Origin: Escherichia coli
GTDB taxonomy: Bacteria > Pseudomonadota > Gammaproteobacteria > Enterobacterales > Enterobacteriaceae
Strand: one strand, 5' to 3'
Assembly: GCF_003334385.1 (NCBI RefSeq)
Contig: NZ_QOWN01000028.1
Length of the DNA: 60,886 nucleotides
Under the pieces are notes generated by a model that was not told the DNA's origin, searched no databases, and saw only the letters and a list, made by a program, of their open reading frames with translations. Every line of letters starts with the position of its first letter. Position 1 is the first letter of the stretch. The position numbers and the translations under genes were made by a program. Below are positions 35,568-37,371 of the stretch, piece by piece.

Positions 35568-36743
35568 TCAATATCGGTTTCTGTCAGCGATTAAATTCAA
35601 CACCACGTAACAAACGCCTCCGGCAATTAATCCCCAAAACGCAGAACCAATCCCGACCAGCGTCAATCCACTTGCCGTTACCAGAAATGCCACCACCGCC
35701 GCGTCTCGCTCACGCTCATTATGCAGCGCCTGATACAAACTGCCGCCGATGGTACTTAACAGCGCCAGACCTGCCAGCATCTGGATCCAACTTACGGGCA
35801 GGGCAGCCATCATCCCGGTAATGGCACTACCAAACAGACCTGCGAGCAAATAGAAAATGCCTGCAACGGCAGCGGCCAGCCAACGTTGATCTTTATCCGG
35901 ATGCGCTTCCGGGCTTTGGCAAATAGCCGCGGTGATTGCCGCAATACCGACGGAATAAACGCCGAAAGGGGAAAAAACCAGTGCCAGCAATCCAGTAAAT
36001 ACAATTAATGGCGAAACAGGAGCCGAATATCCAGCTGCTTTCATTGCTGCGATACCCGGTGCGTTTTGCGATGCCATCGTCACCAGAAAAAGGGGGAGTG
36101 CAACGCTCAGGCTGTGAGCAAACGAAAAATCAGGGGTAATATAAGTGGGGAGAACGGGTTTAAAGACAACATCAGTTGTGACAACGTCACCTTGCGCGAT
36201 GACGATCACGATCCCAATAATCATCGCGGCAATTACCGCATAGCGCGGCGCAACGGCCTTGGTTGCCAGCCATACCAGCAACATACTTCCACACAACGTA
36301 AATTGACCGTCCAGACTGGCAAACGCCTGTAAACCAAAGCGTAATAAAATCCCGGCAAGCATTGCCGCCGCAAGCGAGTGCGGAATAATGCGCATCAGAC
36401 GAGCAAAGAGTCCCGTTATGCCGCAGAGGACTATTAGCGCGTTGGTGACAATAAAAACGCCGATGGCTTCGTTAAGTGTTAGTCCCTGCAATCCGGTGAC
36501 CAACAAAGCCGCGCCAGGCGTTGACCATGCGGTGAGAACAGGTACGCGATACCATAATGTCAGAGTCAGCGTACTGACGCCCATTGCCAGCCCCAGCGCC
36601 GTCATCCAGCCAGAGATTTGTGCAGTGGTGGCTCCGGCGACAATCGCTGCTTGCCAGATTATTGCCGCTGAACTGGCGTAGCCAATTAATACCGCCAGAA
36701 ACCCCGCCAGTAGCGTGGGTGGAGGAATAGAAAACAGACGCAT
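35568..36743 (-). CDS. ydcO: BenE-family (benzoate-transporter-like) inner-membrane protein
   Basis: ORF track 35568..37004; the internal ATG at 36743 gives 391 aa (MRLFSIPPPTLLAGFLAVLIG..); highly hydrophobic polytopic protein. Confidence 0.82.
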   Translation of the reverse strand: MRLFSIPPPTLLAGFLAVLIGYASSAAIIWQAAIVAGATTAQISGWMTALGLAMGVSTLTLTLWYRVPVLTAWSTPGAALLVTGLQGLTLNEAIGVFIVTNALIVLCGITGLFARLMRIIPHSLAAAMLAGILLRFGLQAFASLDGQFTLCGSMLLVWLATKAVAPRYAVIAAMIIGIVIVIAQGDVVTTDVVFKPVLPTYITPDFSFAHSLSVALPLFLVTMASQNAPGIAAMKAAGYSAPVSPLIVFTGLLALVFSPFGVYSVGIAAITAAICQSPEAHPDKDQRWLAAAVAGIFYLLAGLFGSAITGMMAALPVSWIQMLAGLALLSTIGGSLYQALHNERERDAAVVAFLVTASGLTLVGIGSAFWGLIAGGVCYVVLNLIADRNRY

Positions 36744-36834
36744 AGTCACCTCGTGCGTTATAGCGTACAGGCACCGTAGCATTTGTCCGTTATAACGCAC
36801 AAGTGATAAACTTCCGTTTTGCCGGAGGAGTCGC

Positions 36835-37371
36835 ATGGAAAATCTCGCTCGCTTTTTATCCACCACACTTAAACAACTACGCCAGCAGCGCGGCTGGAGT
36901 CTTTCGCGACTGGCAGAAGCGACGGGCGTTTCTAAAGCAATGTTAGGGCAGATTGAGCGTAATGAGTCCAGTCCGACGGTCGCGACATTATGGAAAATTG
37001 CCACCGGGTTGAACGTACCATTTTCAACATTTATTTCTCCGCCGCAGTCCGCTACGCCTTCAGTTTATGATCCACAACAGCAGGCGATGGTGATCACTTC
37101 GCTGTTTCCTTATGATCCACAACTCTGCTTTGAACACTTCTCGATTCAGATGGCATCTGGTGCAATAAGCGAATCGACGCCCCATGAGAAGGGGGTAATC
37201 GAACATGTCGTCGTCATTGATGGACAACTTGATCTGTGCGTTGATGGGGAATGGCAGACCCTTAATTGTGGGGAAGGCGTTCGATTTGCTGCAGACGTCA
37301 CGCATATCTATCGTAATGGTGGGGAGCAAACCGTACATTTTCATTCCCTCATCCATTACCCGCGCAGTTAA
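36835..37371 (+). CDS. ydcN: XRE-family helix-turn-helix regulator with C-terminal cupin domain
   Basis: 178-aa ORF; N-terminal HTH (LRQQRGWSLSRLAEATGVSKAMLGQIERNESSPTVATLWKIA); divergent from ydcO across a 91-bp intergenic region. Confidence 0.85.
   Translation: MENLARFLSTTLKQLRQQRGWSLSRLAEATGVSKAMLGQIERNESSPTVATLWKIATGLNVPFSTFISPPQSATPSVYDPQQQAMVITSLFPYDPQLCFEHFSIQMASGAISESTPHEKGVIEHVVVIDGQLDLCVDGEWQTLNCGEGVRFAADVTHIYRNGGEQTVHFHSLIHYPRS

Follow-up and report, generated by a model that had tools for sequence, protein, structure and literature searches.

The ydcO-sutR gene pair of Escherichia coli as a probable self-contained regulatory module with an IS609 junction in the ydcO stop codon

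The divergently transcribed genes ydcO, which encodes a BenE-type membrane transporter, and sutR (ydcN), which encodes a regulator with a helix-turn-helix (HTH) and a cupin domain, occupy positions 35568-37371 of a 60,886-nucleotide (nt) stretch of Escherichia coli DNA (contig NZ_QOWN01000028.1, assembly GCF_003334385.1; this whole stretch is called the window, and positions are given in its coordinates unless another record is named). We consider it very probable that the two genes form a self-contained module, in which SutR represses both of them through two palindromic operators (O1 and O2) in the spacer between them and is released by a ligand, and in which the insertion sequence (IS) IS609 has made a change to ydcO that is most likely neutral. 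The gene pair and its interpretation are already known for E. coli K-12, and the system was reportedly described by Yamamoto, Nakano and Ishihama in 2015 (Microbiology 161:99). To this known locus our analysis adds a base-level model of operators and promoter (O1, O2 and an extended -10 element), which is directly testable; the recognition of sutR-ydcO as a two-gene module that is conserved mainly across Gammaproteobacteria; and a documented case of an IS200/IS605 insertion in a stop codon, where the IS itself supplies the replacement stop.

The locus and its two genes

The gene order in this part of the E. coli chromosome is tehB-ydcL-[IS609]-ydcO-sutR-rlhA. The 4.4 kb between 33100 and 37500 are 99.9-100% identical to K-12-type genomes, and the RefSeq gene names in this region are ydcO, sutR, insQ and tnpA. 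The curated K-12 record (NC_000913.3) has the same layout as the window, with ydcO as b1433 at equal extent and sutR as b1434, and it is this identity of the 4.4-kb region, together with the equal gene order, that identifies SutR as the orthologue of b1434. YdcO matches the benE model TIGR00843 with 703.8 bits in a form of 391 amino acids (aa) and with 727.8 bits in a form of 404 aa (cut-off 203.4), and it matches the Pfam family BenE (PF03594) over model positions 3-378 of 378 (E 9e-162). In SutR, Pfam places HTH_3 at residues 12-64 (E 1.5e-16) and Cupin_2 at residues 105-171 (E 3.9e-10). An earlier reading of the same DNA, made without database searches (the sequence-only reading), had described the locus as a BenE-type transporter facing an HTH-cupin regulator, and these matches bear it out. 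The boundaries that it gave are exact, 35568 being the final base of the ydcO stop codon (minus strand) and 37371 the final base of the sutR stop codon, and its divergent spacer of 91 bp holds given the 391-aa form of ydcO.

Binding of SutR to the divergent control region

The spacer carries two copies of a 20-bp palindrome with the consensus TTGTGCGTTATAACGCACAA, which is a perfect palindrome in an alignment of five genera; O1 is the copy proximal to ydcO and O2 the copy proximal to sutR (table 1). Repeat detection returned them as two related repeats of 16-17 nt (36753-36769 and 36785-36801) that lie 32 bp apart. The core CGTTATARCG has three matches in the 61-kb window, where 0.14 would be expected, and all three are in the spacer. 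When E. coli is compared with four other genera, O1 and O2 are conserved and the remaining spacer diverges. Two palindromes are present in nearly every related spacer, and sites within three mismatches of the 16-mer occur 142 times in 11.1 kb of spacer sequence and once in 534 kb elsewhere. A third motif-like site in the window, at 43473 (three mismatches), was rejected as lying at chance level (about 0.2 expected per 61 kb), and an Rfam match to mir-2001 across the operators (E 0.61) was dismissed as a reflection of the palindromes.

Published data show that SutR binds this spacer both in vitro and in vivo. The ydcO/ydcN spacer is among the 11 SutR targets obtained by genomic SELEX (systematic evolution of ligands by exponential enrichment; PMC5934670). 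In chromatin immunoprecipitation with exonuclease treatment (ChIP-exo), the top YdcN peak (site 21 of Dataset S4, at 1504105-1504137 of NC_000913.2) has a signal/noise value of 1344.75, and the runner-up among the 62 sites, at dppA, has a value of 140.56 (PMC8464067). Transferred to the window (the offset between versions 2 and 3 of the K-12 record being 1975-1977), the top peak falls at about 36743-36777, in the ydcO-proximal half of the spacer. The UniProt summary of Yamamoto et al. 2015, as quoted in PMC11196684, states that SutR represses ydcO as well as its own gene and that it acts via SutR boxes. The claim of the sequence-only reading that the regulator controls its neighbouring transporter agrees with this reported repression, with the SELEX target and the top ChIP-exo peak, and with the conservation of the pair and its operators.

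Conservation of the gene pair

Forty diverse SutR homologues were aligned, and 80 loci were then retrieved from reference genomes with this alignment. In 76 of the 80 loci, sutR is directly preceded on the opposite strand by a gene for a YdcO homologue (47-95% identity). The paired loci are mostly from Gammaproteobacteria, Enterobacterales included: the pair is found in Serratia, Pectobacterium, Yersinia, Erwinia, Pantoea, Halomonas, Aeromonas, Shewanella, Legionella, Pseudomonas and the betaproteobacterium Paenalcaligenes, and the same pairing occurs in Vibrio cholerae, Planctobacterium, Reinekea and Pseudoalteromonas. A third conserved gene, which could have served as a clue to the substrate, was sought in the 80 loci and was found only among closely related genera; no linkage to rlhA is seen beyond Enterobacteriaceae and their near relatives. 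When the five genera are aligned, the distance from the operators to the ydcO ATG is near-constant, whereas the distance from the operators to sutR differs by amounts between 30 bp, in Kluyvera, and over 200 bp, in Raoultella. The constant distance suggests that ydcO is the primary target of SutR.

A different arrangement was observed in Halomonas sp. CUBES01 (locus L083, positions 1-3500), where a P-loop ATPase of the Sll1717 family (a weak match to an anti-phage family) and an open reading frame (ORF) for a weakly BrnA-like antitoxin lie between the operator pair (28-75) and sutR; any ydcO homologue of this locus would be outside the flank that was retrieved.

A model of the ydcO promoter and its repression

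On the ydcO-sense strand the element TGnTAnnnT keeps a constant position relative to O2 in 73 of 84 loci, where the background rate is 0.4% per 16-nt window. We infer that this element is the extended -10 of the ydcO promoter, which would place the transcription start near 36766 and give a leader of about 23 nt that includes the Shine-Dalgarno sequence. Because the conserved extended -10 adjoins a palindrome, O2 would cover about -36 to -17 and O1 about -4 to +16 of the predicted promoter, which is a classic repressor layout and fits occlusion.

The mechanism that we propose follows this layout. SutR dimers most likely bind the two 20-bp palindromes of the 91-bp spacer. In a ydcO promoter dependent on its extended -10, O2 would stand in for the -35/spacer region, and O1 would lie over the start site. 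SutR bound at O1 and O2 would thus block RNA polymerase and ydcO would be repressed; O2 is located just upstream of sutR, and sutR would be repressed too. SutR is presumed to leave the DNA once a small molecule occupies its cupin pocket, and YdcO would then be produced in the presence of its substrate or of a related metabolite.

The IS609 junction in the ydcO stop codon

IS609, a member of the IS200/IS605 family, is inserted cleanly, without target duplication, and separates the first two bases of the ydcO stop codon from the third. In an IS-free strain the region reads ...GCGCTTTTTAT/TATCGGTTTCTG... (the slash marks the insertion point) and YdcO ends in ...NRNR, encoded up to CGA TAA; the empty-site allele has TTAT followed by TATCGGTTTCTGT.... 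The right end of IS609 (...GTCAA) gives T plus TGA on the ydcO strand, and YdcO now ends in ...DRNRY before the new stop. The coding sequence (CDS) of ydcO and IS609 therefore overlap by 4 nt (35568-35571). When the C-terminus is compared with the IS-free allele, the ending ...NRY before the stop is not shared, that allele having ...NR in its place. The sequence-only reading had located the IS immediately at the 3' end of the transporter gene, which is correct as to place and understated as to extent, the element reaching 4 nt into the CDS. Its suggestion of a possible IS effect on the C-terminus or the terminator turned out well founded: the stop codon is split, one Tyr is added, a new TGA is provided and a hairpin has been moved by 1748 bp.

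This hairpin is the intrinsic terminator of ydcL. In IS-free strains it lies 5 nt past the ydcO stop, on the other strand, and in the window it is 1748 bp from ydcO. RNA folds give no adjacent U-tract for the hairpin on the ydcO strand, and therefore it may never have been an efficient terminator of ydcO. Alignments of orthologues end at YdcO residues 375-391, mostly at 383-390, which indicates that the tail is weakly conserved. The extra Tyr is probably neutral. Taken as a whole, the change that IS609 brought to ydcO is most likely neutral. The junction is common: the IS and its boundary with ydcO are present in 3266 of 5426 complete E. coli genomes (about 60%), and the empty site is present in 1999 (about 37%). 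A literature search on the IS609/ydcO junction found nothing specific.

A second insertion was observed in E. coli strain E597 (locus L003, about 1224-1930), where IS200C lies in the same short ydcL-ydcO spacer. It interrupts the run of T in the ydcL terminator, and the ydcO stop is unaffected. The ydcL-ydcO spacer looks like a repeated target for elements of the IS200/IS605 family.

Alternative explanations

Several points weigh against the proposed model of local repression or restrict it. The reported repression of ydcO by SutR is second-hand, and the called ChIP-exo peak spans O1 only. Scanning the spacer for a strict sigma-70 consensus gave no promoter, and the -10 of E. coli ydcO (TACGGT) is weak. 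Among the loci the two operators are spaced by anything between 27 and 45 bp, which disfavours a fixed cooperative geometry, and therefore no phase-dependent loop is proposed. Finally, SutR is described as a multi-target regulator of sulfur utilisation, with 12-16 transcription units (PMC11196684), and not as a purely local one. If this last description is given full weight, SutR would be chiefly a global regulator (of cysE, pfkB, fliZ, ypfN and others) and its adjacency to ydcO would be incidental synteny. The published name and regulon, together with the 11 SELEX targets and 62 ChIP-exo sites, speak for such a role, and so does dppA, the second-best ChIP-exo site, where a 12/16 match to the motif (NC_000913.3, 3708116-3708131; locus L093; four mismatches) is centred beneath the published peak. 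However, the ChIP-exo peak in the spacer is about 10-fold above every other, the divergent pair and its operators are kept in 76 of the 80 loci while all other neighbours change, and among related loci the motif is nearly confined to sutR/ydcO spacers. The secondary sites have degenerate motifs with 4-6 mismatches, the match at caiF (NC_000913.3, 34567-34582; locus L094), which is likewise centred beneath its published peak, having 6 mismatches in 16; the dppA and caiF sites may reflect weak half-site recognition. We therefore regard a chiefly global role with incidental synteny as quite improbable: a conserved two-gene module argues that the primary role of SutR is the local control of ydcO and not global sulfur regulation. 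The geometry of the module would also change if ydcO began at the ATG at 36782, as it does in RefSeq, where the Prokaryotic Genome Annotation Pipeline (PGAP) gives a product of 404 aa (403 aa in IS-free strains) and hence a spacer of 52 bp, with O1 and part of O2 within or at the start of the CDS. Besides its annotation by PGAP, the 404-aa form has in its favour a match to TIGR00843 positions 1-395 that gains 24 bits over the 391-aa form; the match of the extension to positions 1-13 of that model may be the source of the PGAP choice. However, no Shine-Dalgarno sequence precedes 36782, whereas the ATG at 36743 has GAGGTG at a distance of 5 nt on its upstream side, and it is this ATG that aligns in all five genera, while the 13-residue extension does not. 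Gene calls for ydcO in Salmonella, Kluyvera, Kosakonia and Raoultella are 388-394 aa long, the extension has two substitutions already between E. coli strains, and the operator spacing, hence the length of the extension region, changes among relatives in non-multiples of three. The ATG at 36782 itself belongs to the conserved TGnTAnnnT promoter element, and the curated K-12 record uses the 391-aa form from 36743. The extension was rejected as a genuine part of YdcO because it lacks a Shine-Dalgarno sequence, is unconserved and overlaps the promoter element. The longer form is thus very improbable; the 391-aa start is favoured, and the widely propagated 404-aa start of RefSeq is probably wrong, the evidence here pointing to an error.

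The effect of IS609 could also be read less benignly than in the proposed module. In that case the insertion would functionally damage ydcO, through hairpin loss, read-through into the IS, the changed C-terminus, or antisense transcripts that come from insQ or from its omega RNA, and the module would be decaying. The hairpin that stood beside the ancestral ydcO stop is indeed far removed now, a terminator scan found no plus-strand terminator between the insQ stop and ydcO, and sub-threshold, omega-RNA-like Rfam matches reach 35581, within ydcO. On the other side, ydcO has an unbroken frame, and the inspected records that carry the IS annotate it so, the junction is carried by about 60% of complete genomes, a single residue is added, at a tail that is weakly conserved across genera, and the ancestral hairpin, having no U-tract on the ydcO strand, was probably no strong terminator of ydcO. 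We find damage by IS609 unlikely, and a neutral change remains the preferred reading of the junction.

Features of the locus and content of IS609

The features are collected in table 1. Within IS609 the ORF at 34025-34312 matches positions 2-84 of 126 of the IS200 TnpA profile and gives an interrupted match of 99 bits on NF033573. The tnpA frame is broken, and therefore this copy of IS609 is probably immobile; with tnpA broken and insQ intact, it nevertheless occupies this position in about 60% of the complete genomes of E. coli. In the mechanism of TnpB the guide is drawn from the DNA that flanks the right end of the element, and the target motif here would be TTAT. At the 3' end of insQ and the right end of the IS, Rfam gives sub-threshold matches at 35455-35581 (plus strand), namely HgcC (35465-35581, 21.9 bits against a threshold of 50, E 0.048), sot0042 and RAGATH-18. 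These matches are consistent with a TnpB omega RNA whose presumed guide would be 35572-35587. The empty-site allele holds TTAT followed by a target that matches this presumed guide. At its gathering thresholds Rfam returned nothing in 33700-37500.

Table 1. Positions of genes, regulatory elements and IS609 features in the window
Feature	Position	Strand	Basis
ydcO CDS, 391 aa plus stop	35568-36743	-	ORF and translation; TIGR00843; Pfam BenE; NC_000913.3 b1433; AlphaFold2 (AF2) fold
sutR (ydcN) CDS, 178 aa, XRE-type HTH and cupin regulator	36835-37371	+	Pfam; RefSeq name; PDB relatives 6B8W and 1Y9Q
Divergent control region, 91 bp	36744-36834		Flanking CDS starts; ChIP-exo peak at about 36743-36777
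Operator O1, ydcO-proximal, TCGTGCGTTATAGCGTACAG	36751-36770 (16-nt core 36753-36768)		Repeat; enrichment; conservation; top ChIP-exo peak above it
Operator O2, sutR-proximal, TTGTCCGTTATAACGCACAA	36783-36802 (16-nt core 36785-36800)		Repeat; enrichment; conservation
Predicted extended -10 of the ydcO promoter, TGCTACGGT	36773-36781	-	TGnTAnnnT conservation
Shine-Dalgarno GAGGTG of the 391-aa ydcO start	36748-36753	-	Read from sequence; CCTC...CAT kept in 4 of 5 aligned genera
IS609 (IS200/IS605 family), 1748 bp, inserted 3' of TTAT (33820-33823)	33824-35571	+	Empty-site allele (locus L002); mobile_genetic_element of equal extent in NC_000913.3
insQ, TnpB RNA-guided endonuclease gene, intact, 402 aa	34320-35528	+	NF040570 guided_TnpB, 379.8 bits; RefSeq
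tnpA pseudogene (yncK), Y1 transposase frame broken	33881-34312	-	RefSeq internal stop; NC_000913.3 pseudogene b4578
Left-end subterminal hairpin CCCCATCCTTCAGGGCGGGG	33840-33859	+	Read from sequence; resembles right-end hairpin
Right-end subterminal hairpin CCACGTCCTTCAGGGCGTGG	35542-35561	+	Sequence and RNA fold; IS ends ...GATGTCAA at 35571
Presumed omega RNA guide, 16 nt, TATCGGTTTCTGTCAG, antisense to the last ydcO codons	35572-35587	+	TnpB mechanism
ydcL intrinsic terminator, 8-bp GC hairpin and TTTTTAT	33797-33823	+	Terminator scan; folds of both alleles; empty-site sequence

Elsewhere in the window, two small RNAs were matched by Rfam above the gathering threshold, both on the minus strand: RydC at 22106-22169 (92.5 bits) and the sok antitoxin RNA at 22729-22880 (109.7 bits). 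Two neighbouring small ORFs of 58 and 145 aa at 39949-40587 (plus strand), downstream of rlhA and yncJ, stand at what we take to be the position of the hicA/hicB toxin-antitoxin genes on the K-12 map.

Substrate of YdcO and signal of SutR

The AF2 model of YdcO, built with 26 homologues, has a predicted local distance difference test (pLDDT) score of 85.7 and a predicted template modelling (pTM) score of 0.82, and has 16 helices; residues 71-73 and 265-267 form short strands. A Foldseek search with this model returned UraA, UapA, SLC26Dg, plant and human SLC26 and SVCT1 at template modelling (TM) scores of 0.67-0.72; a sequence search of the PDB with YdcO found no relative. The 7+7 inverted-repeat UraA/SLC26 fold serves small anions, nucleobases and ascorbate, and therefore a small organic anion is the likeliest class of substrate for YdcO. 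YdcO is most likely a secondary transporter of this 7+7 fold. No transport data for YdcO were reported in the literature searched.

The cupin residues His117, Glu123 and His157 of SutR are invariant in the 40 homologues. The closest full-length solved relative is 1Y9Q (VC1968 of Vibrio cholerae), which aligns with SutR residues 8-177 (E 8e-37), and the cupin domain structure 6B8W aligns with residues 83-177 (E 1e-37). A V. cholerae protein that is 98% identical to VC1968 (locus L095, 2747-4546) is encoded divergently from a BenE gene, and its locus shares both operators; this protein is therefore a member of the SutR/YdcO module. The pocket of 1Y9Q is reported to hold D-methionine (PMC7901475). 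At three loci, regulators of the SutR type with the same two palindromes were found divergent from aminoacyl-tRNA trans-editing genes, which take the place of BenE. The partner is an AlaX-like gene in a metagenome-assembled genome of Coxiellaceae (locus L085, 2750-3400) and in Marinomonas mediterranea (locus L096, 3211-3852), and a 140-aa ORF plus a YbaK-like gene in Legionella shakespearei (locus L086, 1505-2426).

Aromatic acids, which the sequence-only reading had implied as the signal, find no support in this analysis or in the papers examined. The observations on SutR are leads only, and as such they favour a signal that resembles an amino acid or contains sulfur over an aromatic one. A more far-reaching reading, which we put forward as a tentative possibility and which is more likely false than true, is that the SutR-type regulator and its dual operator are a portable unit that senses a small molecule, either amino-acid-like or with sulfur in it, and not aromatic acids. 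It is raised because of the pairing with BenE in most Gammaproteobacteria, the tRNA trans-editing partners elsewhere and the D-methionine in 1Y9Q. If it were true, the compound moved by YdcO, inwards or outwards, would be one with which tRNA can be mischarged, and the BenE label would be misleading as to the substrate.

Comparison with known systems

The nearest known system is that of SutR and YdcO in K-12 itself (b1434/b1433): the window holds the same locus, gene order and IS609 included, and no difference was found. Further away stands VC1968, for which the D-methionine reported in the pocket of 1Y9Q is at most a candidate for the physiological ligand, as it is for a ligand of SutR.

The transporter matches the BenE benzoate/H+ symporter family (TC 2.A.46; PF03594; TIGR00843) over its full length and far above the cut-off. 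The prototype benE sits in a ben catabolic cluster, whereas the ydcO module is without nearby catabolic genes.

IS609 shares with the elements of the IS200/IS605 family that carry TnpB, such as IS608 and ISDra2, the absence of inverted repeats and of target duplication, the subterminal hairpins, a tetranucleotide on whose 3' side the element inserts (TTAT here), the right end TCAA and the combination of a Y1 tnpA with tnpB. The present copy differs from IS608 and ISDra2 in that its tnpA is a pseudogene and in that it sits in a host stop codon and supplies the replacement stop.

With respect to regulation, a comparison is offered by the XRE-cupin repressors, which in Pseudomonas are local repressors with palindromes beside their targets, and of which PuuR is released by putrescine (PMC7901475). 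PuuR of E. coli and PauR, PsdR and ErfA of Pseudomonas aeruginosa (PMC7901475) share with SutR the HTH_3 and cupin domains and the binding of dimers to palindromes; they repress adjacent, often divergent genes of metabolism or transport, and release by a cupin ligand is presumed or shown for them. SutR belongs to a separate subfamily from PuuR, the NCBIfam PuuR model matching its HTH region only, with 41 bits against a cut-off of 211, and it is set apart from these XRE-cupin repressors by another operator sequence and by a BenE transporter as its partner.

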